Source of the DNA: a candidate division WOR-3 bacterium
Lineage (GTDB): Bacteria; Hydrothermota; Tepidihabitantia; B3-TA06
Reading direction: 5' to 3'
NCBI GenBank assembly: GCA_016934635.1
Contig: JAFGSK010000044.1
Coordinates: forward strand, 27,708 to 91,707
Length of the DNA: 64,000 bases
This document shows positions 21,747-59,573 of this stretch, piece by piece. The translations under genes and the position numbers were made by a program. Every line of letters begins with the position of its first letter. The first letter of the stretch is position 1. The notes beneath the pieces were generated by a model that was given only the letters and a program-made list of their open reading frames with translations, did no database searches and had not been told where the DNA came from.

Positions 21747-21863
21747 AAATCCTCCTAGGTATAATTTTCGCAGCAATGCTACAACAATCCAGGAGCCGGT
21801 CAAGCTTTACGTGCCACTGGATCGGTCTAATGTAGCCACATTGGGGTTATTTAAAGTTCCGAG

Positions 21864-22772
21864 TTAATGCTTACTTGTCATCACCACTTTTGCCGTTTTC
21901 CGCACTTGGGGAGTGTTAAGGCAGAAAAAGTAAGTACCCGAGGGTAACCGCGAACTATCCCAAAGCAAAGAGTGACTTCCAGTCTCTTCAAAACCACTGT
22001 AGAGGGTTTCGAGCCTCCGTCCTGATGCGTCCCAAAGTGAAATCTCAACGTCTGCATATGTAGGCAATGTGTACCGGATAACGCCTGATGAAACTGTAAT
22101 TGTAACCTCAGGGACGGGGTCGGTGACCAAGTCTGGTTCTAACTCTACTATGCCTGCATCAGGTGCTAGACCCTTAACCCGCAGGATCATATCTACGCTG
22201 TCACCAAGCTTTCCCGACATTCCAGTTACATTTATCTGTTCCCAAGAGTACCAGGTCCCGTCATCGTAGAACCAGGAGGAATGGTGCAGTGGACGATTAC
22301 AATCATACTCGAAGAAAGGACCCTCTGTATGTACCAGTTCAACCGCGACATAGAAACTGCCCGAGTTAATTACAACGTTGAGATCACTTGCATCGACCCA
22401 ACGCACCCATGCATAATCGAGAGCAACCGTTTTATGTGCAATCTCTTTGCCAGGTGACTCTGTCCCATCTTGAAAGAAGCAGAGCTTGCATTGCTGGTCA
22501 TAGGTTTCCCCTAATGCGCCGTATGCCGCTTCGAGTACGGTGAAAGGGTAGCTGGGTGGTGTATACTTAACTCCCATCCTGTCCCCGGGATCAAGCTCTA
22601 AATGCCACCAGCCCAGACCTTCCTCGTCGGCCTGCAGAGTAACGGTGTCCATGTCAGCCTTACGAAACTGAAACGTGTTACTTGTATTTCCTATGTCGGT
22701 GATGGATATAGTCAAACCTGGTATTACCCAAATCAGCACATAGATAACGGTCAAGCTAAAGGTTCTTTTCAT
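21864..22772 (-). CDS. Secreted protein with a T9SS-type C-terminal sorting domain (paralogue B)
   Basis: Same architecture as paralogue A; shares PGDR.V..TPP.YPF, PLHH.SW and LPSGTYF. Confidence 0.8.
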   Translation of the reverse strand: MKRTFSLTVIYVLIWVIPGLTISITDIGNTSNTFQFRKADMDTVTLQADEEGLGWWHLELDPGDRMGVKYTPPSYPFTVLEAAYGALGETYDQQCKLCFFQDGTESPGKEIAHKTVALDYAWVRWVDASDLNVVINSGSFYVAVELVHTEGPFFEYDCNRPLHHSSWFYDDGTWYSWEQINVTGMSGKLGDSVDMILRVKGLAPDAGIVELEPDLVTDPVPEVTITVSSGVIRYTLPTYADVEISLWDASGRRLETLYSGFEETGSHSLLWDSSRLPSGTYFFCLNTPQVRKTAKVVMTSKH

Positions 22773-23051
22773 AAATCCTCCTCTGTTCATCGTCGCGATA
22801 GAAAATTATCGCCGACAATAGTTATCGGAAATAAGAATAAGCTTTTTTTAAGGCTAGTCAAGTTCAGTTCTAAGACTTCCGGTGTTTAGCTAATTCGATT
22901 AAGGTTTGATCTTAACTAGACAAAGATTCTCTTTTTTGTTCTTTTGACCGGGCTTGACAGCCCTGCTCCTTTCAGTATGATTGCCCTATGAAACGTTTGT
23001 TGTCAATAGTTTGCTTTAAATCGAAAAATCTAACCGAAAAGAAGGTGAAGA

Positions 23052-34595: not shown

Positions 34596-36608
34596 ATGCG
34601 TCTATTGTTAATCGCAGCCTTTACTATATGTGTAGGATTTGCGACTGCTTGTGCCGGTAAGCTGGACGGTCTCGACCTTTCGAAGACCCAGTACGATATT
34701 AACTACCGGCTAAAGGGGGACGGTCTTGACAAGATGGATGAGTTAGGGTTCGTGCTTTATCCCACCATGGAAGAGGAGATATACGATCTCTACGGCAGCT
34801 TCACCAGATCCTCCACAACACCTATATTCATCTCGGCAGACCTGCCCTACCATACACTGCACCTAATGGTCGACTACACCGTAAGGATAATGGAGTTGGA
34901 GGAGCTCCTGCCGAAGCTTGAGGAGTTGACTGAAGGCATGCTGGCTGAAGCCGAACGGGATTACAAAAAAACCTCCGCTGATCTCAAGGAAGCGGCAAGA
35001 GCCGAATTCATCTACTTTGCGGTTGCTGCCAAGCTCCTTGAGCTGGATGTCGAGCTTGCAGCCCAGGACGCAAAACTCGTCAAGAAAGAGCTCGAAAAGA
35101 TCGAAAGACACTCAGGTCTTGAAGACGTTTCGTTCCTGCCGGAGATAAAAGAGGACTACTCCCAGTACGTACCCCGAGGCCACTACACTCGGTCGGAGGA
35201 GTTCGGACGCTACTTCAAGGCGATGATGTGGTTCGGCAGGCTGCCCCTGCACATACCCAAGGAGGATAAACCTCTTTTACCAATGCAGACAGCCCTGCTC
35301 ATATCACTTAACCTTGAGGATAACGATGATCTTAAGACCCTTTGGAAAGAGATATACGAACCCACCGCCTTCTTCTTCGGTTGCGCGGACGATTTGACCC
35401 CTGAGCAGTTGATCGAGGCCGCTGATGATTTCTACACCGAAAAGCTGAACCCAGATGTCTTTGCTGACGAGACAAGGCTGCGCGAGTTCGCCCAAGAACT
35501 CAGAAGTGACTTCAAACCGAAGATTCTTTCAGAGTTCGCACTGTCTACAGGAAAGGAACAGATAGAAATCCCCGTGTCTATGCGCTTCATGCCCCAGCGG
35601 TTCGTCCCGGATTCCTACATCTTCTCCCAGCTCACATTCGACAGGGTGACAGCCTATCAAGGGAAACCTGAACCTAAGCCCTTCACATGGGGCATGACTG
35701 CGGTCGGTGCGATGCGCGTATTCCCGCGGGGGCTGGATGCGATGGGAGTTCTGGGCTGGGAAACAGCTGAGGAAATCCTGAGAAAAGACGGGGATACCGA
35801 GTACATGGGCTACGAAGAACAGTACCAAAAGATGGTCAAATGGTACAATGGTCTGCCGGAAGAGGAACGCAAATCCTCGGTATACTTCAGGTGGTTCGAG
35901 CTGTTCAGGCTTTACCGCGAGGCATGTGCCCCGAAGAAGGTTGATGCCTGCGCCTGGGAGAGCAAGAAGCTTTTGACCGCACTGGGTTCGTGGACCGAGC
36001 TTCGCCACGACGCGATACTTTACGCCAAACAGAGCTACACCGCGGTCGGAACCGCCGCCCCTCCCCCACCTCTGCGACTTGCGTACGTCGAGGAAGCGCC
36101 CGAACTTTACGAAGCAATGGCGGAATGCGCACGGGTGATTGCAGGTTTTGCCGAGGAAGGAAGCAGAATCGCCGATTCTTACGAGAGTTTTGCCATAACA
36201 CTCGATAATCTGGCGGATTATGCCAGAAAGCAGCAAAAGGGGCAAAACTTGAGTGCTGAGGAGCACTCCTACCTGTGGTACGTTTCTTCCACACTCCGTA
36301 ACCTTCCTTACAATCTTGGAAACGTCGTTTTGTCTGACGCAGACCAGCGCATGGCGCTCGTTGCTGACGTTCACACCGACCTGAACTCAAGCCAGGTGCT
36401 TGAGGAAGCAACAGGCAGCCCAGCACGGATTCTCGTGCTGGTCGAAATTGACGGCAAATCCTACGTTGCGCAGGGCGGGACCTTTTCTTACTTTGAATTC
36501 AAGCATGACATGGCAGACAGGCTGACCGACGAGGCGTGGCAGCAGATGGTACAAGATGGAAAAACTCCGGATATGCCTACCTGGACTGAGGTTATATTCG
36601 CGGAGTAG
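34596..36608 (+). CDS. DUF3160 domain lipoprotein (paralogue 2)
   Basis: Lipobox-like ATAC; same motifs as 26079-28115. Confidence 0.88.
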   Translation: MRLLLIAAFTICVGFATACAGKLDGLDLSKTQYDINYRLKGDGLDKMDELGFVLYPTMEEEIYDLYGSFTRSSTTPIFISADLPYHTLHLMVDYTVRIMELEELLPKLEELTEGMLAEAERDYKKTSADLKEAARAEFIYFAVAAKLLELDVELAAQDAKLVKKELEKIERHSGLEDVSFLPEIKEDYSQYVPRGHYTRSEEFGRYFKAMMWFGRLPLHIPKEDKPLLPMQTALLISLNLEDNDDLKTLWKEIYEPTAFFFGCADDLTPEQLIEAADDFYTEKLNPDVFADETRLREFAQELRSDFKPKILSEFALSTGKEQIEIPVSMRFMPQRFVPDSYIFSQLTFDRVTAYQGKPEPKPFTWGMTAVGAMRVFPRGLDAMGVLGWETAEEILRKDGDTEYMGYEEQYQKMVKWYNGLPEEERKSSVYFRWFELFRLYREACAPKKVDACAWESKKLLTALGSWTELRHDAILYAKQSYTAVGTAAPPPPLRLAYVEEAPELYEAMAECARVIAGFAEEGSRIADSYESFAITLDNLADYARKQQKGQNLSAEEHSYLWYVSSTLRNLPYNLGNVVLSDADQRMALVADVHTDLNSSQVLEEATGSPARILVLVEIDGKSYVAQGGTFSYFEFKHDMADRLTDEAWQQMVQDGKTPDMPTWTEVIFAE

Positions 36609-37955: not shown

Positions 37956-39134
37956 TTACTCTTCTTCAGGTACATCTGAGAAGGAAACCGCAACCGAAGC
38001 GCGGTGAACCGGGGCAAGATACCAGTGCCACTCGAAGCTGTAATCGACGAAGATATTGTAGACTATGTCTTTGTAATAGGTGGTATCGTTAGCCATTAAA
38101 CGAGTAGTCTTCTTGTCGACTACCCTGGAACTGAAAGGAACCTTCAAACCCATTCCGGCTGAAGGGCCGCGACTGTTCCGGTTGGACAGGATCTCTCGTA
38201 TCAGATCCCCGGTCTCCATGGTAGAAGTCGAATCTTCTTCGTCGCCAAGCGAAGGTGCCGTATTGAGTCCCAAGCCTCCGCGCAGGAACAACTCTACATC
38301 GCTGATCCCTATTGCATACTCAAGACCTAAGGCGCCCTTGGCGGCCTGGTCAGAGAGATGGAAGAAATCTGCCTCCAGTGTCAGTCGTGACGCATCGGTG
38401 TCAACCAAATCAAGGGCGATTCCTCCACCGAAGGTAAAGGGCAGACCGAAGGTCTCGGATTGAAAGTTAGCGGGTATATCCTCGGTTTGCAGGGTATCCT
38501 TGTTGGTATTGAAGAAAAGCCCTGAGCCTTTATAGGCCATGTCAGGACCGAAATTCTGGACAACGAAACCGATCCTCAGATTACTGAAGGGAAGCTCATA
38601 GGTGGCGCCAACATCCATACCCAATCCCCACGCAGCCACATTGTGAAGCGTGAGGTCGATCACCTTTACGGTTGCGCCTGCAGTAAACTTCTCAGTCATC
38701 TTCCGGGCGTAACTCAAACCTACGGCGTAGTTGTTGGCAGAGTAATAATTCCCGGTTCCTTGCTGATCTTCGTAGGTTGTTATCTCGATTGGTCCGGACA
38801 GATGGGCGAGTATTTGAACGCCCACTGCATCCATGGCTCCAACCGGCATCCCGACTGCGACGTTTTCCTCGAGCATGCCTGCGAAGAGCATGGCCTGGCC
38901 AAAGGAAGCAGAAGGGGCTTCCATCTTGGCTATACCGGCCGGATTCCAGTATAGAGCATCCGGACCGTCGGCCAGCGCCGTATATGCACAACCCATAGCT
39001 ATCGGCCGTGCCCCGGCACCCATGCTCAAAAATGACGCTGACGCACCGGCTCCGCCAAGGCGCGCAGAAACAGGAACCGAAATTACAACCAGAGCCAGTA
39101 TACCGAGGATTAGGAGTTTTTTCTCGCGTTTCAT
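37956..39134 (-). CDS. PorV/PorQ family outer-membrane protein
   Basis: SFLSMGAGARPIAMG.AY.A.ADGPDALYWNPAGIA, D.GATY and QNFGPDM motifs. Likely start ATG 39134. Confidence 0.9.
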   Translation of the reverse strand: MKREKKLLILGILALVVISVPVSARLGGAGASASFLSMGAGARPIAMGCAYTALADGPDALYWNPAGIAKMEAPSASFGQAMLFAGMLEENVAVGMPVGAMDAVGVQILAHLSGPIEITTYEDQQGTGNYYSANNYAVGLSYARKMTEKFTAGATVKVIDLTLHNVAAWGLGMDVGATYELPFSNLRIGFVVQNFGPDMAYKGSGLFFNTNKDTLQTEDIPANFQSETFGLPFTFGGGIALDLVDTDASRLTLEADFFHLSDQAAKGALGLEYAIGISDVELFLRGGLGLNTAPSLGDEEDSTSTMETGDLIREILSNRNSRGPSAGMGLKVPFSSRVVDKKTTRLMANDTTYYKDIVYNIFVDYSFEWHWYLAPVHRASVAVSFSDVPEEE

Positions 39135-39145
39135 CTCTTCCTCCT

Positions 39146-42100
39146 TTACCTTACGATGGCGAATTTGCCCCAGGCTTTTTCGCCATCCTCGGTTTCTACC
39201 TGCCAGATGTATAACCCGCTCGTGCAATCAAGGCCTTCCTCGGTCAAGAGGTCCCAGTTCTCGGAACCTGCCCCGCCGTAAAGGCCGACGCCGTCGTGCT
39301 CAATGGTTCTTATGAGTAATCCTGCGGTGTTGAAGATACGTATCTTACACTTTTCAGGCAGGTATTGGAAGACTACGTGCCGATCGTACTGGGTGCGATC
39401 CCATGGGGCGCGGACGTAGTATGGGTTTGGAACAACCTTGATGTCTTTCAGGGTTATGCTGGTATCGGTGGTGTCTATGAACGAGGTGTCGGTCGTGAAC
39501 TCAAACAGGTCCTCAAGGGTGGTGGAACCGATGGTCTTGATCAGGAACTGCTCTCCAGCCTTTGGATTAATCACGAGCTGAATCGTATCCTCAGTAGTAT
39601 CGTTGACTGTCTGGATATTCGTCACCGTATCTTTGAAAAATACGGTCAAGTTGGGATTCCCAGGGGCAAAATTCGGGTAATAGATACTGAATTTATTTCC
39701 GTCTTCAATCGGCCAGCCCCTCGTACTCAGCCATAGAACAATATCCTTGTTCGGGTTTTGGTCGATTAATACAAGGGTGTCATCTACACGCACCCGCTGA
39801 ACCGAGATGGGACATGTTTGGTCAGTACAGTCTTTACCGTTGGGGTCGATGGTGACAAGATAGCTCTGCACCATCGGGACAGGTTCACCTGCATCGTCGC
39901 CTTCCCAACTAACATCGAAGTCCATATCGGTAGGTTCTTGTTCGTCCTTCTTGATCCAGCCGGTCTCGTAATCGTCGATTATCTCCTCTATGTCCAGGGT
40001 ATCTATGGATATACCGGCTATTTGAATGAAGAGCCCGTCCAGTACCGGGCCGCTGAACTCGCCTGAACGCATGACGAAGTCGTCAAGAACAACGGAATCA
40101 CGGGTCATGTCTTTGACGTAAGCCAGACGGATTGTCCCGGTTGCAGGGTCTTCTTTGAAGCCGACCCTGTAGGTATGACCTGTTATCTGTTCCGGCGATA
40201 CGACGCTGTCGGCAACCAGGGCGCTGCCTTCGCCTGCAATACGTCTTGCCGGAGTACAGGTCGATGTCTTCCACCTCATCGGGTTGCTTCGCGGAACCGC
40301 CCAGTAGGTCTTGCCGGACTTTCCGCCTTCCAGTGATTCGACACCCTCGGTTGGTTGAGGCCGTGAGTAGGAGGTCACCGAGTAATAGTATATCTGACCG
40401 TTGTGGACATTCTCGTCGATGTAGAAGTGGCGTATTCCTTCCTGACCTCCAAGTGCTTCTGCAGGGTAGGTCATGATTACGAATTCCTCGCCGTGTACAG
40501 GTTCAAGGATGTCCCCTGGTTCCGCCTGGGCTGGATCGCCATCCTTGATCATGCACTGTACGCCGTCAATAAGGATTATATCGCCGGAATTGTAGATATA
40601 AGGAGGGTCTGTCAGAGGCTTCACACCGCCGTCTAGTCCGGTAAGTATACAAAAACCGCCTTCGTCAAGGGCGTTCTCGTTGTAATTCAAGACCTTCAGC
40701 TCAGCCAGATCGTAGACTGTATAGCCAATGCCTGAATCTACAATAGTTGAGTCGAACGAGATTGTATAGATGTTGTAGCCGTAGCCTATCTTGTCTAAAT
40801 CCACTCCGGAATGATAACCCAGATATTCGATGGTTGATTTGGTTGGACCAACAAAATGCCCGACTATAACCGTATCCGGGTTGTAGGAACCTGCAAGATC
40901 GTAGTCGGCCATGAGTTCCCAAGTCTCTGAGATTCCGGAAAGACTGCGGTAGACGCGGTACCCTTCGAATGTATTTTGACCGCTCATTGGATCGGTGTAG
41001 TTCTCAGGATCACTGTTCCAGTTCAGGTAAACCGTGCTGTCGCCCGGGATTACCGTAAGTGCCGGGTTGGGTGGAGGGGAGTAACCGAAGTAACCGTTCT
41101 CGAACTGAATCTTGGCTGCAATTGCCTTCTCCCTCAATTCGTCAAGGGAGTAAGCCAGGATAATTGCATAGGTGATTTCGAGTTGGTCTCCGGTTTCGAG
41201 GTACGGCATCAGTGAATCCACAGGTCCGCAGTTCAGAAGCATCCTTACGTCGTTGGGATTTTCCCAGGTAACGAATTCCCTGGAAGCCATGTATGAGTAT
41301 TTCAGGCTGTCCGTTCCGTCGTTGTCGATATCGAATCCGTTTTGCCACGTCTCAAATCCGGTAAGACCGATTTCGACCCCGCGGTTGTCCTCAGGGGTCT
41401 CAAGCAATACGCAGCCGATATAACCTGCCGGGGTCACCCAACCCGACTCTGAACCGCCAGCATCATAGGTGTAGCCCATGTTGAGTCCCTCGTCGAATCC
41501 AATCAGATCATCCCAGCAACCGTCGTCACCAGCGACATTTCCGCCGGTTCCAACGTCGTTGTCCATGAAGAGTGAGATGTATACCGAATCGAGCGTGAAG
41601 TCGTTCATGTTTTGTATCTTGTAGTTAAAGTACACAAAGTCTTTGTTGTAGTTATAGTTCCAGCAGTATGTTCGCTGTTCGATCCTGATGCCTTGACCCC
41701 ATATATCGTAAGGTCCCATGCTCCTGATCCAGATCACCGCCGCGTCCTGGGCAGGAATCCAGTCTCCTGCACAGGCGTATGTATCCTGAAACGAGATGAT
41801 ATCACCATTATCCGGATCAACCTCAGGCATCGAGATGGCCCTTCTCTTTTCATTGATGGCGGTATCTGCAAACGGCCACAAGGTCTGGTACTCCAAAGGC
41901 GTGGTTCCGCCCTGGGCAAAGAGATTGCCGCCTTGACCCACAAAACCGTACCCATCAGGGATAACCATGTCGCTGAAGTAAAAGCCGCGGTTGCTAATAT
42001 CCTGCATACCGCCTGCGTTCTCCATCTCAGGCGCTGCCATAGCTCCAAGATCACTATAGAAACCGCCTTTGGAAACGTTAGGTCTGTAAGACCCGCCGCT

Positions 42101-42490
42101 TCCGCCTACTTCAGCTGGGTACCAGCTGCCCACCCACAGGCCGAACGCAAACCCGTAGAACTGCTCGGATCCTGCCGGGAACTCTATGTTATCACCCCTT
42201 CCGTTGTCTCTGTGAGGAAGTCCCCAGTACGGATGTTCGTCAGCCGGGTGGCGTTTGAATACACCGCCTTGCAAGGTGTTACTAATTGGAATATCACTGA
42301 TGTTTCCACCGTCAACGAACCAGGTCATCCAGAACCAGGCAGGCTCATTGGTAGTCTCTGTCAGAAGACGAACAGGTTTTGGCTCCTTGACGTATTCCAA
42401 ATTCTGTTCGTAATTCATCTTGGCAAACGCCGGTAATGCAAGGGTTGCAAGGAGCGTTAAAACCAAGAAGGTTTTTCTTGTTTCCATCAT
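39146..42490 (-). CDS. Large secreted protein with an FN3-like module and a T9SS-like C-terminal domain
   Basis: Signal peptide; PGDSTVYLNW, FEGYRVYRS and YYYSVTSY; CTD IKVVPNPY...IRIFNTAG...WDL...SGLY...GKFAIVR. Confidence 0.88.
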   Translation of the reverse strand: MMETRKTFLVLTLLATLALPAFAKMNYEQNLEYVKEPKPVRLLTETTNEPAWFWMTWFVDGGNISDIPISNTLQGGVFKRHPADEHPYWGLPHRDNGRGDNIEFPAGSEQFYGFAFGLWVGSWYPAEVGGSGGSYRPNVSKGGFYSDLGAMAAPEMENAGGMQDISNRGFYFSDMVIPDGYGFVGQGGNLFAQGGTTPLEYQTLWPFADTAINEKRRAISMPEVDPDNGDIISFQDTYACAGDWIPAQDAAVIWIRSMGPYDIWGQGIRIEQRTYCWNYNYNKDFVYFNYKIQNMNDFTLDSVYISLFMDNDVGTGGNVAGDDGCWDDLIGFDEGLNMGYTYDAGGSESGWVTPAGYIGCVLLETPEDNRGVEIGLTGFETWQNGFDIDNDGTDSLKYSYMASREFVTWENPNDVRMLLNCGPVDSLMPYLETGDQLEITYAIILAYSLDELREKAIAAKIQFENGYFGYSPPPNPALTVIPGDSTVYLNWNSDPENYTDPMSGQNTFEGYRVYRSLSGISETWELMADYDLAGSYNPDTVIVGHFVGPTKSTIEYLGYHSGVDLDKIGYGYNIYTISFDSTIVDSGIGYTVYDLAELKVLNYNENALDEGGFCILTGLDGGVKPLTDPPYIYNSGDIILIDGVQCMIKDGDPAQAEPGDILEPVHGEEFVIMTYPAEALGGQEGIRHFYIDENVHNGQIYYYSVTSYSRPQPTEGVESLEGGKSGKTYWAVPRSNPMRWKTSTCTPARRIAGEGSALVADSVVSPEQITGHTYRVGFKEDPATGTIRLAYVKDMTRDSVVLDDFVMRSGEFSGPVLDGLFIQIAGISIDTLDIEEIIDDYETGWIKKDEQEPTDMDFDVSWEGDDAGEPVPMVQSYLVTIDPNGKDCTDQTCPISVQRVRVDDTLVLIDQNPNKDIVLWLSTRGWPIEDGNKFSIYYPNFAPGNPNLTVFFKDTVTNIQTVNDTTEDTIQLVINPKAGEQFLIKTIGSTTLEDLFEFTTDTSFIDTTDTSITLKDIKVVPNPYYVRAPWDRTQYDRHVVFQYLPEKCKIRIFNTAGLLIRTIEHDGVGLYGGAGSENWDLLTEEGLDCTSGLYIWQVETEDGEKAWGKFAIVR

Positions 42491-42503
42491 TCCTCCTAAT
42501 GCC

Positions 42504-45500
42504 CTAGAAACTTACTCGGACACCGAAACGCATGATGCGTGGGTCACCATAGTTGCCGGGGTTCTGCCCATAGAAGGCTTCCCAATCCGCTAAATCGGCT
42601 TCCCAATCCTGTTCCGGTACCAGGAAACCATTCCGTGCATAATTACGGTAAAGGGCAGGTTCAAAGACCGGCGCATCGCCGTGATCATCCGCCAGACCCG
42701 TGTTGGAGTAAACGTAAACTACGTTTTCCCAGTCGAACACATTGGTGACGTCGAAATAAAATCCCAAGCGTGTCCGTCCAAGGAAACCTTCCTTTCTGCT
42801 GAGCCCGAACCATTTCTCAAGCCTGAGATCCAAAGATTTTACAGGAGGAGTACGACGCGTGCCAAGTGGAATGGGATTGCCTTTCGAGTCTGTGGCCCAG
42901 TAGGGGTGGCCGGATGCTGCGGAAAACATGACGTTGAAGTTAAAATCACCTAACGCTCGAACAAGGAAGGGGGCGTCCGGTTTTGATACGGGCAGGTTGA
43001 AGTTGAGATTCGCCTTAACGGAATGAGGAACATCGAACTCCAATGGATACTCATGCTTGGGCGGTTGAAGGGTAGAGCCGCGGTAGCGGTAGTAGAATTC
43101 CCTTCCCGATGAGCCGGTGCCCTTGGCGTCCATAAAGGTATAAACAACGTATCCAGAGAAGTAGGTTCCCCTCTGGCGAACCTTTCTGACTCCTATATCC
43201 ACTCCTTTGATCTTAGCAAAATCCTCAATCTGGTATACGGTGTAACTTGCCAGTTTGCGTTTGTAAAGGGTGGTAACTTCACGTGTAGCCAGAAGATTCT
43301 CCTGATCCCGGTAGTAGGCCTTGAGTGTCAATGCCCAGTTTTTTCCCTCATCCAAAGCCTGTTCATATCCTGCTTCATAAAAGATAGTCTTCTCAGGCGG
43401 AAGATTCGGATTCCCTAGCAGAGGTACACCGGTAGTGATATCGGCTTCCATGTTCTGATAGAGCTCGCTCAGTACGACGGGCTGGAACATGTGTCCGTAA
43501 GAGGCGTACATATTGGCCTTATCCGAGACGGCAAAGGAAAGTGACAGCCGAGGACTGAATTGAAGCTTGGCATCTGTAGGCGCTTTTCCGGAATCTATGT
43601 TGTCTTCATCGATGTAGTACTCCGATTTAGGATCGAAATAATCGAATCTGAGACCGGCATCGAGTTCAAGATCCTCGTATCTTATCACGTCTGAGATATA
43701 AGCCGCAAGACTGATGGGTTTTACGTGATAGTCGTCAGAATAAGGATTCTCATTGATGAACTGGATGCTGGAATACTCGAGATCGTTAAAGGTGCCGTTA
43801 ACACCAACCTCGATGCGGTTTATGGTGTCGGGCAGCCATGTAACCGATATATCCCCCTGGTAGTTTGTTGTCGACCGCTCAGACCACACAGGTGAGTAGT
43901 AATAGGAGAAACGGCGGAACAAAGGATCGGAGTTGTAGCGGCAGTAATACATGTTGCCCGAACCCTCAAGGCTGTCCTCGTAAGGATTCTCAACCTCAAT
44001 GGTGTCTCCGGTGGCCTGATCGATAATTATCGAATCCCAGTCTCGCCACAACTCGTAGTAGTGTCTGTATAAATCGTAGTCGAACAGGTGGTAGTGGACG
44101 CCTACCGTATCGTAGGTTGTATCGGCGCCTTCTATATTGATAACGACCGAAGGCCTCCACTCATTTACCTCGTACCAGCGTTCGTTTAGCGCCTCGAGTG
44201 CATCGGCCCAGCTGAACCAGGAAAATGCCTTGTCGCCTTCCTTATAGAAGCCTCTCGGATTCACGTATTCGTTATAAAAAAGCCAGACCAACGAATCAGG
44301 ATAATCGACGGAAAGGGTATCAGGGAAAAGCGCGGAATAACGCTGCTTGACATTGATCGTATCTCCTTCGTTGGTAAGGAAAAGAAACAGGTTTTCGTCA
44401 GGGATGGTGAAGGTCATCGTGCTGGGATCGAAAAGGGTTTTCCAGGTCTTGTCGGTAAAGAGTATCGTATCCCGGACTGCGCCCATCTTTACCCTTATCG
44501 TGTCACCGACCACGACATCACCCGGGTAAAAGGTATCGGTTTCCGTATATATCGTATCTTCGAGGACAATAGTATCGCTAAGCGATTCCCACCATCCTTG
44601 GGAAGAATCCATTGCCCAGCCGACCCAGGCCAACTGCTGCCGACCGAGCTGTTTAAAATCGTTGTAGTGAGCGCCGTCCTGGTATGAAAAAGAGGTGTGC
44701 GTGTTGAAGGTTCCTATGTTGATGTTGTATATCAGCTTCTCCGATAAGGAATGGTTGACATTGAGATTCAACTGATAGTTACCTCTCTGGGTGCGTGGTC
44801 CGAACTGTTCCAGCCAAACGCCCTTACTCATACTATGCACGTAGCTGTGATACCAGAGATCGGAGTAGTTGCCGGAAAGGGTAAATTTGGGTAGGCCTCC
44901 GGTCTTTAACGTATCTTTTCTTCCCATCGGCGCCCAGGTCAGCTTCAGAGTGCCGTTGAGACGGTGCTGATCCCTGAAAGGAAGACGGTTCTCGTGATCG
45001 GTCCAATTCCCGGAAACAAAGAAAGTCGCGCTTTCGCGTCCCGGGATAAGCGGTCCTCCGAACGCCGCCGAGGCCTTCTGGTGAAACATGTTCTCGTTAG
45101 GGAACTTGATAGGGTCTTTGCTCGTTCGTATCCCGCCGTCAGTCTCGTATTCCAGTATACCGGTATATCTCTTGGTGCCTTCGCGGGTAACGATCTCGAC
45201 GACTCCGCCCATCGCGTTGCCGTATTTTGCATTGAAGTTACCGGTATTGACCCTGACCTCTTGAATGGAGTTGTTATCGATGTCCACACCGGATTGGCCT
45301 GTTACAGGATCGTTGGCGTTGATACCGTCTACCATGTAAACGAGCTCATTTTCGCGTCCGCCCAGAACGTGGATCTCGTCCGAGCCGGCAGCGCCTATGT
45401 TGACGGCTCCAGGTTCAATGCTAACCACGTCACCCATACCGTGGACTCCGGCGATTGTCTTTATCTCTTCGCCTGTTCTGGTTGGTTCTTTTGAACCCGT

Positions 45501-45890
45501 GAAAAACCGCTCTGTTGGGTTTATTACAACCACATCAATCCTGACGGCTACGTCGGTTCTGAGTTTGGGGTATAGACTGACCGTTTGACTTGAAGATATC
45601 TTGACATTATCAACTATGTACGATTTGTAGCCCATACAGGAGAACTCAACTTTGTATACACCGGGATAGATGTTGGAGATCAGGAAGTTTCCATTCCCAT
45701 CGGCGTAAGTTCCTCCAACCGATTTTCCATCAGGGGTTGTTACCTGGACTGCCGTAAAGCCCAGTCCTTTTCCAGTTGAGGCATCCTTGACTTGTCCTTT
45801 GAGTACCCCTGAGATGTCGACCCCGAAAGCCAGGCCGGGGCCGAGGAGTACAACAATTACGGTCAGAATGCCCAATATTCTTCGTTTCAC
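42504..45890 (-). CDS. TonB-dependent receptor with an N-terminal carboxypeptidase-regulatory-like domain
   Basis: Plug GGRENE..YMVDGI..NDP and FNAKYGNAMGGVV; AGLRFDYF, GNPNLPPEKT; ends PRIMRFGVRVSF. Confidence 0.93.
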   Translation of the reverse strand: MKRRILGILTVIVVLLGPGLAFGVDISGVLKGQVKDASTGKGLGFTAVQVTTPDGKSVGGTYADGNGNFLISNIYPGVYKVEFSCMGYKSYIVDNVKISSSQTVSLYPKLRTDVAVRIDVVVINPTERFFTGSKEPTRTGEEIKTIAGVHGMGDVVSIEPGAVNIGAAGSDEIHVLGGRENELVYMVDGINANDPVTGQSGVDIDNNSIQEVRVNTGNFNAKYGNAMGGVVEIVTREGTKRYTGILEYETDGGIRTSKDPIKFPNENMFHQKASAAFGGPLIPGRESATFFVSGNWTDHENRLPFRDQHRLNGTLKLTWAPMGRKDTLKTGGLPKFTLSGNYSDLWYHSYVHSMSKGVWLEQFGPRTQRGNYQLNLNVNHSLSEKLIYNINIGTFNTHTSFSYQDGAHYNDFKQLGRQQLAWVGWAMDSSQGWWESLSDTIVLEDTIYTETDTFYPGDVVVGDTIRVKMGAVRDTILFTDKTWKTLFDPSTMTFTIPDENLFLFLTNEGDTINVKQRYSALFPDTLSVDYPDSLVWLFYNEYVNPRGFYKEGDKAFSWFSWADALEALNERWYEVNEWRPSVVINIEGADTTYDTVGVHYHLFDYDLYRHYYELWRDWDSIIIDQATGDTIEVENPYEDSLEGSGNMYYCRYNSDPLFRRFSYYYSPVWSERSTTNYQGDISVTWLPDTINRIEVGVNGTFNDLEYSSIQFINENPYSDDYHVKPISLAAYISDVIRYEDLELDAGLRFDYFDPKSEYYIDEDNIDSGKAPTDAKLQFSPRLSLSFAVSDKANMYASYGHMFQPVVLSELYQNMEADITTGVPLLGNPNLPPEKTIFYEAGYEQALDEGKNWALTLKAYYRDQENLLATREVTTLYKRKLASYTVYQIEDFAKIKGVDIGVRKVRQRGTYFSGYVVYTFMDAKGTGSSGREFYYRYRGSTLQPPKHEYPLEFDVPHSVKANLNFNLPVSKPDAPFLVRALGDFNFNVMFSAASGHPYWATDSKGNPIPLGTRRTPPVKSLDLRLEKWFGLSRKEGFLGRTRLGFYFDVTNVFDWENVVYVYSNTGLADDHGDAPVFEPALYRNYARNGFLVPEQDWEADLADWEAFYGQNPGNYGDPRIMRFGVRVSF

Positions 45891-46132
45891 GTCAACCTCC
45901 TTGTCTTGGGTTGGGTGAGTTCTTTAACTTTAATTCATTCTTCTCTTGGAATACGCATGAAAAAATGCTGGACTGACCTCCTTGTAGTTGACACACGTTT
46001 ACACTTTTGCCTAAAACCATCTTAATCCGTCCTTTAATCCGGGCAACCCTAGAAAGCCCGTTGTGTTTTTTAAAGGAATCCGCTAAAGGAGGGTGACGAT
46101 CTGACTCCTTCGTGCAGACTTCCTCTACTTTG

Positions 46133-46160
46133 AGTATAGTTTTCTTTTCGCACTTGTCAA
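46133..46160 (-). promoter_or_regulatory. Sigma70 promoter of the TBDR operon, with a ~235-nt leader
   Basis: TTGACA-N16-TATACT. Confidence 0.7.
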
Positions 46161-46248
46161 GGGGGAAGGGCTTTTAGAAAACTCGCCAACCTGCCAAGCG
46201 CAACTTGCTAATGAGCGAAAACTTCCTGACGCGAGCAAATATCGATGA

Positions 46249-46571
46249 CTACGGTGCGCTCCAGACAGCGCCTTCTCCTTCTTTTTTCAGCTTTATTGAC
46301 GGATTACCATCAATAACGACAGTTGTGCGGCCTGAATTATACAGCTCCAGTTTTCCACCATAGGCACCGCCGCCCAATCTGGCCTCTGGCCTGCCGCCGC
46401 GTTCGGAACGACAACGAACTCCTTTGCCTCGATCCGGTTAGGGACTGTATACTGCCCCATAAAGATACCTGCAATAAAGAGCAGACCCAGGGTAATACCC
46501 ACGATCTTGAATATCCTCGTCTGACGTTCTGAACGATGGATTCGCTTTGTTAGTTCCTCGACAGATGACAC
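46249..46571 (-). pseudogene. Frameshifted small membrane-anchored protein
   Basis: After EFVVV the -1 frame reads SERGGRPEARLGGGAYGGKLELYN...AVWSAP*. One T appears to be missing near 46407. Confidence 0.6.
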
Positions 46572-46701: not shown

Positions 46702-47250
46702 TTAATATTCAATACCCTTCCTTGCCTTTACACCCTGCTTATAGTAGTGCTTGATCTCGAGCATCTCCGTAACCAGGTCCGCTGACATCACAAGTTCCGC
46801 AGGTGCACCTCTTCCGGTGCAAACCACATCGAGACCGTGAGGTCGATCGATTATCGCCTTCATTACCTTTGCCGTATCGATAAGACCTGCAGAAAGAATC
46901 ACGTTTATCTCATCCAGGATGAGTAAATCGACTAGCTCTTCACCTTTCAGGTATTCGAGGGCAGACTTCCAGCCCTTTAAAGCCTGACTAACGTGCTCAG
47001 CGTTGTCTTCGCCCTCCTTGATCCAGCCCTCTGCACCGAACTGCATACATGCAACACCGAGCTTTTTCAACGAGTCGAACTCTGAAGAGGAACCCGGCTT
47101 GGCAAACTGGATGAACGCGACCTCGAGCCCCTGTGCCGCGGCGCGAACAGCAAGCCCCACGGCCGCGGTCGTCTTGCCCTTGCCAGGACCGGTGTAAACC
47201 TGAAGCAGACCTAAGGCAGAGTCGGATTCGGAATGTTCTTTTTCTTGCAT
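46702..47250 (-). CDS. cobO: Cob(I)alamin adenosyltransferase CobO/BtuR
   Basis: YTGPGKGKTTAAVG, LILDEI, TGRGAP, ADLVTEM and KGIEY motifs. Confidence 0.95.
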   Translation of the reverse strand: MQEKEHSESDSALGLLQVYTGPGKGKTTAAVGLAVRAAAQGLEVAFIQFAKPGSSSEFDSLKKLGVACMQFGAEGWIKEGEDNAEHVSQALKGWKSALEYLKGEELVDLLILDEINVILSAGLIDTAKVMKAIIDRPHGLDVVCTGRGAPAELVMSADLVTEMLEIKHYYKQGVKARKGIEY

Positions 47251-47416: not shown

Positions 47417-48526
47417 TTAATAGCTTTTCAAAAGATCAGCCCATTCTCTGCGATCCCTGAGTCTGGAGCCATATTTATCTAAAACTTCTCCGACATTAAT
47501 CATGAATTTTCTTCGTCCTACTTCACCTAGGAAAACGAATATCGTGGGGAGAAGCTCGGTCAGTCTCAAGATATAAATATTCTGACCACTTGCGAACTCC
47601 TTTTTAATGAGATCTTCGATTTTTGATCCATTCTCTGCTACCACACCTTTCTGAGCCAGGAAAAGAATTTCAGAAACACTTCGGGAACGAATCATTGGAA
47701 GTTTATCCTGGATTTGAGTGAAGGATAATTGTTTATCTTTAACTTCAACCGCTATAACAATCTCCCCGTCTGAATCGCAGCATTCGATATCGGCAACTAG
47801 TCCTGATGTAGAATCCGCGGCATTAATGTTGAACCTTCTAACCTTTGAGAAAATATTGAAAACTTCACCCACTGTCTCGAGTAACGCTGTAGAAACGCTT
47901 AACACTCGATCACCACCTGAACCAACCTTAATGAATTCATCGATCATAGCCAGTAATTGATCTGCGCTTATTCTTTTAGGAACCGAGTAAGTAACCTCCG
48001 TTTGGATAAGGCGTTTGTAAATCTCCTGAAGGACTTGTCTAAAAATAGCCTGTGTGTATTTTTCATTTCCTTCCTCTTCTATCGTCTCAACAATTAGACA
48101 GAGATCGTCCCAACCCACCTTATCCTTTTGTTGATTGCGATATTTCAACGACAATTCAGGACATCGTAATGGATTATTCACGTAAGGTTCAGGAGAGCCT
48201 CCTAAAACGTTTTCGTTGTCTTTGTCAAAAGGTACAATTACTTTGTGGGCAACCGATCTGGCGTCAAACGCTCCAACTCCGCCACGACCTGTCTGAAGAC
48301 ATCTAGCATCAAGCATCGGATTGGCTAATTTAGCAACAACTTGAGTTGGAAGCACGTATCGATAGCTCTTTGTTTTACTATTAATCGATCTGTTAATTGT
48401 GTCAGTGATGTCTTTGGATAGTTTATATTCCGTTTCTAGAAATCCTTCGGAAGAGAAAACCTTATCCCATTCTCCCTTAAGAATACTACTGCATTTTTCA
48501 ACCAATTCAGATATGCTCGAAACCAT
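47417..48526 (-). CDS. Type II restriction endonuclease, SacI family
   Basis: FDARSVAHKVIVPF...SPEPYVNNPLR and AADSTSGLVADIE...EVKD motifs; AT-rich. Confidence 0.8.
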   Translation of the reverse strand: MVSSISELVEKCSSILKGEWDKVFSSEGFLETEYKLSKDITDTINRSINSKTKSYRYVLPTQVVAKLANPMLDARCLQTGRGGVGAFDARSVAHKVIVPFDKDNENVLGGSPEPYVNNPLRCPELSLKYRNQQKDKVGWDDLCLIVETIEEEGNEKYTQAIFRQVLQEIYKRLIQTEVTYSVPKRISADQLLAMIDEFIKVGSGGDRVLSVSTALLETVGEVFNIFSKVRRFNINAADSTSGLVADIECCDSDGEIVIAVEVKDKQLSFTQIQDKLPMIRSRSVSEILFLAQKGVVAENGSKIEDLIKKEFASGQNIYILRLTELLPTIFVFLGEVGRRKFMINVGEVLDKYGSRLRDRREWADLLKSY

Positions 48527-48529
48527 GAA

Positions 48530-49381
48530 TTAATAGTTCATCCAGAGAGCCTCTTGACGCGGCTTCTTTATTGAGTGACATATCTTTTTAGGTGCATCAG
48601 CACGTCGCCAACTACAGTATAAATCATCCATTAGCTTGCATCGGTATCCGGAAATCGCAACCTTTCCTTTGCACTCCCTCAATACCATAGCTAACTTTTT
48701 GTGTTCCTTCTCGGTCATTTCAAACCCGTATGCTTTGGAATCCCCCCTGCTTTCATGGGGGTACGGCGGATCACAATAAAATAAAGTGTCTTTGTCATCG
48801 TAAAGATTAATTACTTCAATTGCCGGTCTATTCTCAATCTGAACACGCAGAAGTCTTGTTGCGATATCTGGTAGTTTCTCTACGCTACCCAACCATCTGG
48901 AAACCACACCTGACATCCCCGCTCTCGATGTCCTCTTGCAATTTGCCCATCTGCCTAAAGAAGCAGTTTGTGCAAGACCTGTACGAACCTGACGGGCCCT
49001 GACAAAAAATCTCCGTGCCCTTTCCAGATCGGATAACTTCTCTTCGGATTCCGATACGGCTAATGCAAACTCTTCCCTGGAAAAGGGGGTGAGACCTATC
49101 GCTTCAATGAGTTGTTCCTTTTGCTCTCTGAGAACCCGGAAGAAATTTACTACCTCACCGTCGATATCGTTGTACGTCTCTACATGAGAGGGTTCTCTGT
49201 TGAGTAAAACTGCGGCCGAACCGCCAAATGGTTCACAGTAATGATGCGCCTTTGGAAGGAAGGGAAGTAACCACTTGAGGTGACTATACTTACCTCCGTA
49301 CCACCCGAAAGCTATCAACTTCTTCCTACTTAATTCTGGATACTGGATTTCTAAAAGAGATTTATCCCGGCTATCATTCAT
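48530..49381 (-). CDS. D12-class N6-adenine DNA methyltransferase
   Basis: WYGGKY, EPFGGSAAV, NDID and YCDPPY motifs. Confidence 0.92.
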   Translation of the reverse strand: MNDSRDKSLLEIQYPELSRKKLIAFGWYGGKYSHLKWLLPFLPKAHHYCEPFGGSAAVLLNREPSHVETYNDIDGEVVNFFRVLREQKEQLIEAIGLTPFSREEFALAVSESEEKLSDLERARRFFVRARQVRTGLAQTASLGRWANCKRTSRAGMSGVVSRWLGSVEKLPDIATRLLRVQIENRPAIEVINLYDDKDTLFYCDPPYPHESRGDSKAYGFEMTEKEHKKLAMVLRECKGKVAISGYRCKLMDDLYCSWRRADAPKKICHSIKKPRQEALWMNY

Positions 49382-51405: not shown

Positions 51406-52977
51406 TTATTGCATTACAACTACCTTTTTGCTTTGAGCCCCGAACGGAGTACTCACCCTCACGAAGTACACCCCTGCCGGAGCGTCGAAGGTAAATGTGT
51501 ATTCGCCTTCGTTCAGGATTTCGTTGCAGAGGTTTTCAAAAAGCCTTCCAGAGGCATCGAAGACATCTACCCTGGTCATGCCGGATTGCGGCAGTCCAAG
51601 CTGAACCGAAACCATATCTTGGAATAGAGATTTCGTCTCAAGTACAATTGGTTCAGGGGGGAATTCCTCGGGTTCGGTGACAGAGGAATAACCCCTCATT
51701 TCCAGGGTAGCGTCGCCCAGAAGGCACATCCCCATGAACCAGGCCTTTGCCGAACCGAAGTCCGGGAAAAAAGTCAACCAGTAGTTGGTCCATACCCGGA
51801 ACGCATCCCCCCAGGAGTATCCTTCGGCGAGAGGTTGATTGAAAAAAGAAAAATGAAGCATCGAACCGGTCTTGGTCGAGCCGACCACTGCGAGTCCGTT
51901 CCCGAAGAGGTTATATACGCTCCCCATGCAATTGGTCTCCACCCATCGGCAGTTAGAGCAGGCAAAAAGGTTGTAGAAACCGAACTTGGGATCTGAGACA
52001 CATATCTCCCAGTTGTAAACCATGTCGGCATATCCGATGTTAGCCTTTTGAAAGTAATGCGCTTCAGGACTCGAATGAACGCATACCGTCAGAAAAAGCC
52101 CTTGCTCTTTAATACGAGACCTGTAATCTTTCGCATCGGTGATGAATGTATCGCGAATCTCTTCGTAGTCTTCAGTGACAAGGTTCATCTCAGTATCATA
52201 GTAACCTTGGGACCAATCCTGATCTATGTAAAACAGGCCCTTTGACGGCAATCTGAACGTCTCTTGCCGGTAGCCGTGAACCCTTTCAAAGTAATCGGCG
52301 TATATATCCAACTCTGAATCATATGAAATACTGGAGGCGTCTATCCTGGCCACCCAGATCTCGGCTTCCAGGGGACCGGTATGCGAATCAAAGACGCCGT
52401 CCGAGCCTTGATTCATTGGACCGGGACCTGCATATACCGAATCGTCTCTCCACTCACCGTCGAGATCTGAAAGATACAGATCGCACGGAAACTCCTCGTA
52501 TTGCTCTTCGTCAAGGTCAAATATTCCGTTGTCGTTCCAATCGTCGTTGAGCTGGAACCATGGAACCGGCTGGTCTCCCACAAGCACGGCACCAACAAGT
52601 CCTGAGTTAAGCCTTTCAGCGAGGTACGCTCTCAGCGCCTCGACCGTACCGGCCGTGGAAAAGATACTCATTTCCACCGAGTAACCGGCGTCCTGGAGGT
52701 CTTGGGTGTATTGATCCAGATGAAACTTGAGGTTTCGAGCGATGTCCGGCGTAACAACGACGGCTATCAGGCCGTCGCTGACGGACCTTGTTCGGGAAGC
52801 CCGCCGGTAAATCACGCTGGGACCGCCCTTAAGGCTCCCGGTTTCAGGATGCAGCGAACGCCATTCACTGTAGGTCACGTAATCCGGATCAGACCTCAAG
52901 TCCCTGGTCAACTTGACGTCCGACTCGGCCCAACTGGAAGTCATAAACAATATAATGAATATTATAATTTTCTTCAT
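51406..52977 (-). CDS. Secreted C25 (gingipain-like) cysteine peptidase with a CTD
   Basis: GAVLVGD, PCDLYLSDLDG, EIWVARI, candidate dyad in VHSS and FACS, LLGD; CTD AGVYFVRV...KKVVV. Confidence 0.72.
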   Translation of the reverse strand: MKKIIIFIILFMTSSWAESDVKLTRDLRSDPDYVTYSEWRSLHPETGSLKGGPSVIYRRASRTRSVSDGLIAVVVTPDIARNLKFHLDQYTQDLQDAGYSVEMSIFSTAGTVEALRAYLAERLNSGLVGAVLVGDQPVPWFQLNDDWNDNGIFDLDEEQYEEFPCDLYLSDLDGEWRDDSVYAGPGPMNQGSDGVFDSHTGPLEAEIWVARIDASSISYDSELDIYADYFERVHGYRQETFRLPSKGLFYIDQDWSQGYYDTEMNLVTEDYEEIRDTFITDAKDYRSRIKEQGLFLTVCVHSSPEAHYFQKANIGYADMVYNWEICVSDPKFGFYNLFACSNCRWVETNCMGSVYNLFGNGLAVVGSTKTGSMLHFSFFNQPLAEGYSWGDAFRVWTNYWLTFFPDFGSAKAWFMGMCLLGDATLEMRGYSSVTEPEEFPPEPIVLETKSLFQDMVSVQLGLPQSGMTRVDVFDASGRLFENLCNEILNEGEYTFTFDAPAGVYFVRVSTPFGAQSKKVVVMQ

Positions 52978-58763: not shown

Positions 58764-59573
58764 ATGAGGTATCCAATCATCTTCTTACTGATAGGCGGAC
58801 TTACTGTGTCTGTCTTTCCCCAAGAAATCTTCAGAACCAATCTCGAAGGTGTGGCTGTGCAGAACTTTACAGCAAGTCAGCCCATCGACGGTTTCAGCGT
58901 GGAAGGCCCGGACGAAGAGGGCTACGTGTATCTGGTGGCTCATTCAGGCTGCGAGTCCGGCAAGATCGTCAGAAACCGCTGGCAGGGCACCGGGTTTCAA
59001 CCATTGAGCATGTCCGAGGGCGAGTATCTGACAGGCTTCGATGTACGAGGACCTGATGAGAACGGCTACGTATATCTTAACGCTCTGGGATCAGAAGGTA
59101 CCTCAGGTGATATTCTCAGGAGTCTGTGGTCCAGAATCTCATTTTGTCCTTTACCGGAATCATTGCTGGAAGGCATAACGAGCCTTAAAGTCTCAGGTCC
59201 TGACGAGGAAGGCTGTGTATATCTGAGTGCAGGTAATTCTGTAATTGATCCTGACGCTTCCAATCAAACTCGGATTGAATATCCCGAATTCGCACTCGGA
59301 GAGATCCCTAATCCTGTGACCGGCGTTATCCGCATCTCGTACTCGCTGGCTGAATCTTGCCGTACAAACATCGTCGTCTACGATCCGTCGGGAAGGCTTG
59401 TGGTGACCCTGGTTGACGGCGAAATACCGACCGGGAATCACTCCTTGACCTGGAACGGGATTAACGAGTCCGGGCAACTTGTGAACTCCGGCGTGTATTT
59501 CGTGAAGATGAACGCCGTCGATAAGGCAACCGGTGGGTTCACAGCCACCCGAAAACTTGTCCTGGTAAAGTAA
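58764..59573 (+). CDS. Secreted triple-repeat protein with an FlgD-Ig/T9SS CTD
   Basis: Signal peptide; three GPDE.G.VYL.A repeats; PNP...YDPSGRLV...WNG...SGVYF...KLVLVK. Confidence 0.85.
   Translation: MRYPIIFLLIGGLTVSVFPQEIFRTNLEGVAVQNFTASQPIDGFSVEGPDEEGYVYLVAHSGCESGKIVRNRWQGTGFQPLSMSEGEYLTGFDVRGPDENGYVYLNALGSEGTSGDILRSLWSRISFCPLPESLLEGITSLKVSGPDEEGCVYLSAGNSVIDPDASNQTRIEYPEFALGEIPNPVTGVIRISYSLAESCRTNIVVYDPSGRLVVTLVDGEIPTGNHSLTWNGINESGQLVNSGVYFVKMNAVDKATGGFTATRKLVLVK

Follow-up and report, generated by a model that had tools for sequence, protein, structure and literature searches.

The window analysed here, a stretch of 64,000 nucleotides from a candidate division WOR-3 bacterium, contains a three-gene operon that encodes a TonB-dependent transporter (T), a secreted protein with a divergent type IX secretion system (T9SS) tail (C, P0002 in the searches) and a barrel of the PorV/PorQ family (V). 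T, C and V are a conserved, co-diverging unit. Judged from sequence, they probably work together as an outer-membrane unit for nutrient uptake in the role of SusC/SusD, with C exported by the T9SS and tethered by V. Briefly, Sec would take C across the inner membrane, and SprA, the translocon of the T9SS, would take it across the outer one. Its tail, which resembles those of PorZ and PorU, would stay uncut and dock in its own PorV/PorQ-type barrel V, and V would tether C on the cell surface beside T. The variable N-terminal domains of C would then serve to capture a polymer or oligomer, which C would hand over to T for import using TonB.

All three genes are encoded on the minus strand in the order T-C-V (Table 1), with spacings of 13 nt between T and C and 11 nt between C and V, the latter counted from Met32 of V. 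The preliminary description of this DNA had reported a tight operon (gaps of 11-13 nt) of a 1128-aa transporter, a 1114-aa secreted protein and a PorV-family barrel, and the open reading frames (ORFs), Pfam and NF033709 agree with it. As a listed ORF, V spans 37956-39227 (423 aa from TTG); because this frame overlaps the end of C, Met32 (MKREKK) at 39134 is the likely start, giving 392 aa. The start codon of T is GTG, located 6 nt after an AAGGAGG ribosome-binding site, as read directly from the sequence.

With regard to conservation, P0002 has 54 database relatives, whose sources are named WOR-3 and TA06, and it was matched at E <= 1e-10 in 232 of the 272 genomes of the phylum. The order T-C-V was found at 22 of the 27 loci of close full-length homologues; at each of the five others, the contig ends on the side where a gene is missing. 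It was also found at all 20 loci in other families of the phylum, which were picked by tail match only and in which C measures 691-1117 aa. A single-sequence query of genome contigs gave no related loci, and an alignment query gave 516 relatives, from which 77 loci were kept. Sixty of these carry T-C-V, 12 are cut by contig ends, and the remaining five are paralogues in which domain 1 is the only shared part of C; these lack the variant tail and are accompanied by neither T nor V. Across the loci surveyed, the variant tail is restricted to copies of C that have T and V beside them. According to the record titles, carriers of T-C-V belong to Zixibacteria, Gemmatimonadota, Eisenbacteria, Calditrichota, Fermentibacteria, Marinimicrobia, KSB1 and Latescibacterota, and further titles name Ignavibacteria (including the cultured Rosettibacter primus), Balneolales, metagenome-assembled genomes labelled Bacteroidetes or Cytophagia, and others; Bacteroidia proper was not among the sampled genomes. 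In total, 105 unique C-V pairs were collected, 83 of them with a complete T, and the median spacing is about 18 nt for T-C and about 12 nt for C-V. With the C profile (A1), a threshold of E <= 1e-3 gave 10878 cluster representatives and one of E <= 1e-30 gave 1567; the core shared by the C family is formed by the C-terminal ~400 residues.

Phylogenetic trees were built from 84 triads, one each for T, V and the core of C. The correlations of patristic distances among them range from 0.85 to 0.87, and pairs of trees have 43 to 53 of 81 bipartitions in common, compared with at most 2 after label shuffling. A count of such triads and a test of tree congruence had been suggested in the preliminary description; both came out in favour of the unit, with the gene order kept across loci and the same deep split into two clades in the trees of T, C and V (support 1.0, 0.978 and 1.0, respectively). 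Both clades are found in single genomes without mixing of partners (L109/L140, L090/L129, and in tandem in L045).

Additional genes accompany the triad at some of these loci. Ten WOR-3 loci (L041:6383-8149, L042-L044, L046-L049, L055 and L056) have an extra gene between C and V for a lipoprotein of ~590 aa with a lipobox cysteine, PKD-like repeats and a six-bladed NHL propeller, which is absent from the window. At clade I loci from groups that include Calditrichota, Marinimicrobia and Gemmatimonadota, the gene after V encodes a conserved uncharacterised protein (680-870 aa) that ends in a standard PF18962 tail (L094:10122-12170, L127:10032-12194, L124:8663-10804, L117:10865-13474 and about 20 more loci). 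This protein, which has no counterpart in the window, might belong to the unit as its fourth component.

The tail of C is, by sequence comparison, a divergent homologue of the type A C-terminal domain (CTD). This segment, the final ~105 residues of C, shows homology to the genome's ordinary CTDs (hhalign probability 95.6%, E 1.3e-8), differs from them by an 8-residue insertion, and matches the profile built from them at only E 0.0015. The tail is marked by the motifs VVPNPYYxRAxWD, KCxIRIFNxAG, SGLYIxQV and GKFAIxR, and C itself ends in GKFAIVR. The preliminary description had set this tail apart from the CTDs of five other cargo proteins; the difference holds, and the count is four, since a standard CTD was detected at E <= 0.01 in four other ORFs of the window (20817-21803, 21864-22790, 51406-52977 and 58764-59573; E 1e-9 to 3e-23). 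No type A CTD was matched in P0002 by Pfam or NCBIfam (PF18962/TIGR04183), and among 43 orthologues TIGR04183 matches four and PF13860 three. The ordinary-CTD profile gives 245 domain rows in the genome of the window, against a single variant tail.

At E <= 1, the tail profile matched in PDB only the tails of PorZ (5m11_A, 3.2e-4) and PorU (6za2_A, 5.3e-4). The PorZ model was matched by 33 of the 43 orthologues (through the tail portion in the query, the matched part being unstated for the others) and the PorU model by 15. C is not a full-length PorZ with its two beta-propellers (NF052228), as it scores 20 bits against a cut-off of 260 and matches only model positions 662-757 of 757. The available text of one source describes PorZ and PorU as the two T9SS proteins with retained tails, which are bound to PorQ and PorV, and reports a proposal that cognate PorV-like barrels protect retained tails (PMC10202324). 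The invariant PNPYY..W stretch of the tail of C has a predicted local distance difference test score (pLDDT) below 50 in the monomer model, which would fit a segment that becomes ordered only on a partner.

The rest of C is more variable, with N-terminal parts that range among relatives from 584 to 1341 aa. Its signal peptide ends near AFA|K and is not followed by a lipobox cysteine. Pfam matched no family in C, no meaningful match to the C profile came from a sequence search of PDB, and an Atlas search with the homologue P0026 found unnamed clusters only. The AlphaFold model of C (pLDDT 81.8, predicted template modelling score (pTM) 0.72) is almost all beta, and Foldseek placed PorZ (5m11) first, with E 2.4e-7 and a template modelling (TM) score of 0.11-0.15. 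For domain 1, Foldseek aligned ~455 columns with GH94 phosphorylases at probability 1.00, TM <= 0.21 and a root-mean-square deviation of ~9 A; this match is a lead hinting at a carbohydrate-binding type of sandwich, not a finding.

A 571-aa paralogue in the same genome (C83:1475-4845, L058) consists only of C domain 1 and an ordinary CTD (PF13860, PF18962). It is 41.5% identical to C over 491 columns and is preceded by ORFs of 181 and 229 aa that resemble pieces of a further copy. In addition, nine of the 43 aligned orthologues (P0005-P0007, P0009, P0011-P0013, P0018 and P0019; loci L033 and L035-L039) have a C of ~1200 aa that matches Pfam Baseplate_J (best E 7.5e-17). Four match TIGR02243, and the extra length apparently lies in the second half of C.

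V belongs to the PorV/PorQ family, scoring 136.1 bits with NF033709 (cut-off 90), and the V profile (A2, 106 orthologues) matched F. johnsoniae PorV (6h3i_F) at E 8.9e-32. It remains below the equivalog cut-offs for PorV (NF033710, 40.8/250 bits), PorQ (NF033711, 76.2/220) and PorV2 (82.4/325). The genome of the window (3.3 Mb) has 17 rows of the PorV/PorQ family, 11 places being over the cut-off, and the cognate V profile scores 488.7 bits at V as against 130.4 for the next paralogue. In this genome the variant tail, the cognate V and the cognate T each occur exactly once. Weak matches to Toluene_X/TodX (Pfam E 3e-4, PDB 1.5e-4) raise the alternative that V has nothing to do with the tail of C and instead serves as a FadL-type channel through which a hydrophobic compound passes. 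That V exceeds the NF033709 cut-off, that its profile matches PorV some 27 orders of magnitude better than TodX, and that it strictly co-occurs with the variant tail make this alternative most improbable.

Several of the PorV/PorQ-family rows of the same genome fall in long frames of 595-1058 aa (C59:6286-9450 (L061), C66:5112-7040, C2:39333-41120, C50:19295-21082, C42:9542-11569 and C41:9177-11063; G000). The C59 frame combines a full PorV-like N-terminal region with a CTD-like end (PF13860/CHU_C, both just below cut-off). These frames may be fusions of barrel and passenger or unrecognised gene joins.

The ways in which V could serve C need to be distinguished. V could be a transient dedicated shuttle, after which C would be released or linked to lipopolysaccharide by PorU and would act independently of T, the linkage of the three genes reflecting co-regulation alone. 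In the available text of PMC10202324, PorV is indeed a shuttle in Bacteroidota; PorU is present in the genome of the window, and the enzymes with standard CTDs that adjoin the triad in relatives are ordinary secreted cargo. However, the genome has many other PorV-family barrels, and yet the variant tail always brings its own. In addition, this tail is unlike the cleaved type A, its best matches among solved structures being PorZ and PorU, whose tails stay according to the same portion of PMC10202324, and the paralogous sets are strictly separate in all three trees. A mere shuttle is thus fairly unlikely, and tethering of C by V is the reading followed here.

Both its profile and its fold identify T as a complete TonB-dependent transporter. 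It is composed of a signal peptide, an Ig-like N-terminal extension, a disordered linker with a candidate TonB box, a plug and a 22-strand barrel. Pfam assigned CarboxypepD_reg to residues 30-106 (PF13620, 47.1 bits), Plug to residues 140-230 (PF07715, 23.6 bits, just below the cut-off of 23.9) and the TonB barrel to residues 629-1027 (PF00593, 87.3 bits). In PDB, the plug and barrel of the T profile (A4, 43 orthologues) align to Cir (8.6e-27), PhuR and PfeA, and the profile also matches isolated N-terminal domains of SusC type (9hfj_A 'SusC homolog', 2.8e-7; 6ytc_A, 5.9e-6). The AlphaFold model (pLDDT 79.8, pTM 0.77) has its plug at about residues 137-250 and 22 counted strands. Foldseek matched it to classic TonB-dependent transporters with probability 1.00 and TM scores, normalised to the target, of 0.63-0.80; the best match is FusA (4zgv_A, E 2.2e-27), and the nearest folds are FusA, PqqU, PfeA and BtuB. 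The disordered linker (residues 114-133) contains a hydrophobic DVVVI stretch as the candidate TonB box. TIGR04056 (SusC/RagA) did not match T at E <= 0.1, and T is not a member of the SusC family.

The machinery that the proposed scheme would draw on is partly visible in the genome of the window, which is 90.7% complete. TonB is present, with 13 TonB_C matches over the cut-off. The preliminary description had suggested a check for sprA and porKLMN: SprA (363.7 bits summed against 200) and PorU (434.9 bits against 420) were found, GldL, GldM and GldN gave no match, with silent controls, and the GldK-like matches are below threshold. SusD (PF07980, PF14322) had no match in this genome, for which a Bacteroides thetaiotaomicron control was matched, and the best TIGR04056 score in the genome, 44.9 bits against a cut-off of 368.25, lies elsewhere than T. 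The earlier statement that the operon has no SusD lipoprotein therefore applies to the whole assembled genome as well.

Oar-type receptors possess a carboxypeptidase-regulatory N-terminal domain, and an Oar-like TonB-dependent channel is reportedly the exporter of Myxococcus PopC. By analogy, T, which has such a domain, might itself be a TonB-dependent exporter that secretes C, V being the receiving anchor, and the missing GldL, GldM and GldN (silent also in the controls) would be in keeping with this. However, the tail of C is of T9SS type and homologous to the abundant CTDs of this genome, SprA and PorU are present, and no Oar-type family of Pfam or NCBIfam matched T at E <= 0.1. The same triad also occurs in Ignavibacteria, in which a complete T9SS is presumably found. 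Export of C by T is therefore very unlikely, and import by T remains the reading adopted.

The functional context of the triad is provided by its relatives. Five genomes carry 4 to 20 triad copies, and 125 of 125 genomes of one class (including the unpublished G392 and G396) carry 1 to 33. In Rosettibacter primus, ten of the 11 tail matches are T-C-V triads, and the eleventh, which is the weakest match, is without partners. The Rosettibacter primus triads lie in co-directional operons with two glycoside hydrolase (GH) family 13 amylases and a protein with carbohydrate-binding module (CBM) 20, with GH3 and CBM9, and with GH88 and GH28. Other genes of such operons encode GH106, the polysaccharide lyases (PL) PL9 and PL1 (pectate lyases), GH31, an ATP-binding cassette (ABC) sugar-binding protein and a sodium-solute symporter. 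These operons have the layout of polysaccharide utilisation loci in which T-C-V replaces SusC/SusD, without SusD. In addition, clostripain-family peptidases adjoin the triad at sister-clade WOR-3 loci, and GH53 does so at an Ignavibacteriaceae locus. In the available text on Melioribacter roseus, Mros0761-0759 of a starch operon are named 'SusC, SusD, SusE' (PMC3534657); they may be a T-C-V triad named by position.

The window genome itself holds a single T-C-V copy, and this bears on whether the triad could instead be a housekeeping part of the T9SS, that is, an attachment module like PorQ-PorZ that processes or anchors other cargo and is not a nutrient importer. The single copy without hydrolase neighbours and the match in 232 of 272 genomes of the phylum would suit such a role, as would the fact that both the tail search and the whole-C fold search point first to PorZ and that V scores higher with the PorQ model (76.2 bits) than with the PorV equivalog (40.8 bits). 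Nevertheless, only the tail part of the PorZ model is matched (20 bits against 260), other genomes contain up to 33 copies, the N-terminal parts of C vary (584-1341 aa), each Rosettibacter primus copy is accompanied by different substrate-specific enzymes, and T is a complete TonB-dependent transporter with a plug. A housekeeping role is accordingly unlikely, and the uptake unit is the better account.

Compared with SusC/SusD (RagA/RagB), the triad is similar in that a transporter with an Ig-like N-terminal extension is encoded beside a large surface partner and that the genes are multi-copy and form the core of operons that also encode glycoside hydrolases and lyases specific to particular substrates. 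It differs in that T lies outside the SusC family, with the nearest folds given above, and in that C is neither SusD nor a lipoprotein, is 3-4 times larger, and is joined by an obligatory third gene, V. The attachment complexes PorQ-PorZ and PorV-PorU of the Porphyromonas gingivalis T9SS are similar to C and V, since the tail of C is nearest to PorZ/PorU and is paired with a barrel of the PorV/PorQ family. However, only the tail of C resembles PorZ, V fails the PorV and PorQ equivalog cut-offs, and C-V is always encoded with a TonB-dependent transporter, is multi-copy, and is found in catabolic operons.

A further precedent is SprB/SprF of Flavobacterium johnsoniae, in which, in the available text of the source, a type B tail is secreted or anchored only with a dedicated adjacent PorV-like barrel, PorP/SprF (PMC10202324). 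A special tail class is likewise paired with a dedicated PorV-like barrel encoded beside it in the triad, but the tail of C is type A-like and not type B, V is PorV/PorQ and not PorP/SprF, and SprB/SprF has no transporter. The idea of a private PorV-like barrel holding a cognate tail extends a published principle (PorQ-PorZ, and PorP/SprF with type B tails), as presented in the available text of PMC10202324, and is not wholly new. Non-SusD lipoprotein lids of Bacteroides (BtuG, XusB, HmuY, DUF4249 and others) are, in the available portion of a preprint, conserved neighbours of non-SusC transporters and proposed outer-face binders (Price et al. 10.1101/2023.03.17.533168). They are exported by the Bacteroidota lipoprotein export signal, and that portion of the preprint makes no mention of T9SS or PorV (10.1101/2023.03.17.533168). 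Unlike these lids, C has no lipobox and has a T9SS tail and its own barrel. Full-text literature searches, which did not extend to supplementary files, turned up no description of the T-C-V triad, in agreement with the preliminary description, which knew of no experimental characterisation.

A stronger version of the uptake reading can be formulated, in which T, C and V form a stable ternary machine: the T9SS would deliver C, the uncleaved tail would plug V, and C would be the substrate-capturing lid of T. This might be the general route to an extracellular partner of TonB-dependent transporters in phyla of the FCB (Fibrobacteres-Chlorobi-Bacteroidetes) group that lack surface lipoprotein export of the Bacteroidia type. 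It is put forward tentatively, as a possibility on the doubtful side. The preliminary description had likewise proposed that a private PorV anchors the cargo beside its transporter as a lid or enzyme, and this is supported in part by comparative evidence, including the conserved, co-diverging unit, the restriction of the variant tail to loci with T and V, the closeness of this tail to those of PorZ and PorU, the operon context in Rosettibacter primus, and the presence of SprA and PorU.

Several observations weigh against an uptake unit of this kind. Congruent trees are expected for any three linked, vertically inherited genes, and only the clean separation of the paralogous sets goes beyond what linkage predicts. 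The top-10 mutual information between V and the tail is 0.36 for true pairs and ~0.15 for shuffled ones, the most strongly co-varying pairs joining R28 and D32 of the tail (within the variant insertion) with acidic and histidine residues of V; this signal was set aside because it is confounded by shared descent. With regard to secretion, searches of the 90.7%-complete genome for GldL, GldM and GldN came back empty, as they did in 14 of 14 control genomes, and no GldK-like match exceeds 74.6 bits (cut-off 350). A lid may also be unneeded, since T has an insertion of its own of ~265 residues, which, counting the 22 strands back from the C-terminus, would be an extracellular loop. Its residues 432-483 have low model confidence, and the short sister-clade transporters lack segments of 407-657. 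Finally, the triad of the window has neither hydrolase nor sugar-transporter neighbours but is surrounded by btuR, a restriction-modification pair and two convergent uncharacterised genes, so that the case for an uptake role here comes from its relatives.

SusC/SusD defines polymer uptake in Bacteroidia. T-C-V is a candidate answer to polymer uptake without SusD in uncultured WOR-3, Marinimicrobia/SAR406, Calditrichota, Zixibacteria, Gemmatimonadota and Ignavibacteria, and it would mark polymer-utilisation loci in metagenomes for which SusD-based prediction is blank. If the stable ternary machine exists, PorV-like barrels would have a second role as permanent anchors that build transporter complexes, and T-C-V may be the older solution, with SusC/SusD as a later, lipoprotein-based replacement. 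Cultured carriers such as Rosettibacter primus exist, and these ideas are therefore testable.

Table 1. Positions of the T-C-V genes and of their parts in the window
Feature	Position	Strand	Description or basis
T	42504-45890	-	1128 aa, TonB-dependent transporter
C	39146-42490	-	1114 aa, secreted, divergent T9SS tail
V	37956-39134	-	392 aa from Met32, PorV/PorQ-family barrel of the 14-strand type
N-terminal extension of T, carboxypeptidase-regulatory-like Ig domain (residues 28-106), as in SusC-type transporters	45573-45809	-	PF13620, profile, model strands
Insertion of ~265 residues in T (403-667), located between strands 7 and 8 of the barrel	43890-44684	-	DSSP of model
Domain 1 of C (~residues 50-470)	41081-42343	-	beta-sandwich; separate paralogue with ordinary CTD
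Variant C-terminal domain of C (~residues 1010-1114)	39149-39463	-	hhalign, alignment, PDB profile matches
Upstream non-coding region with the operon's own expression signals	45891-46260	-	read from sequence

The surroundings of the operon separate it from its neighbours. Upstream of T lies btuR (46702-47250), and a stem-loop directly after btuR separates the two. Downstream, two uncharacterised genes run convergently toward T-C-V. Because of this stem-loop and these convergent genes, the T-C-V operon stands alone. Cobalamin uptake, as suggested by btuR upstream, was considered and rejected in view of the stem-loop after btuR and of Rfam, which gave no family matches anywhere in the 64-kb window and hence no cobalamin riboswitch.

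Between btuR and T (46280-46570, minus strand), a short possible ORF begins after GGAGGTGATGTG and has, by eye, a hydrophobic stretch. Just upstream of btuR (47417-49381, minus strand), a SacI-type restriction endonuclease (PF09566, 1.8e-34) and a D12-class N6-adenine methyltransferase (PF02086) are encoded, which together form a type II restriction-modification pair. On the plus strand, 34596-36608 encodes a DUF3160 protein (full length, 670 aa; E 2.6e-161).

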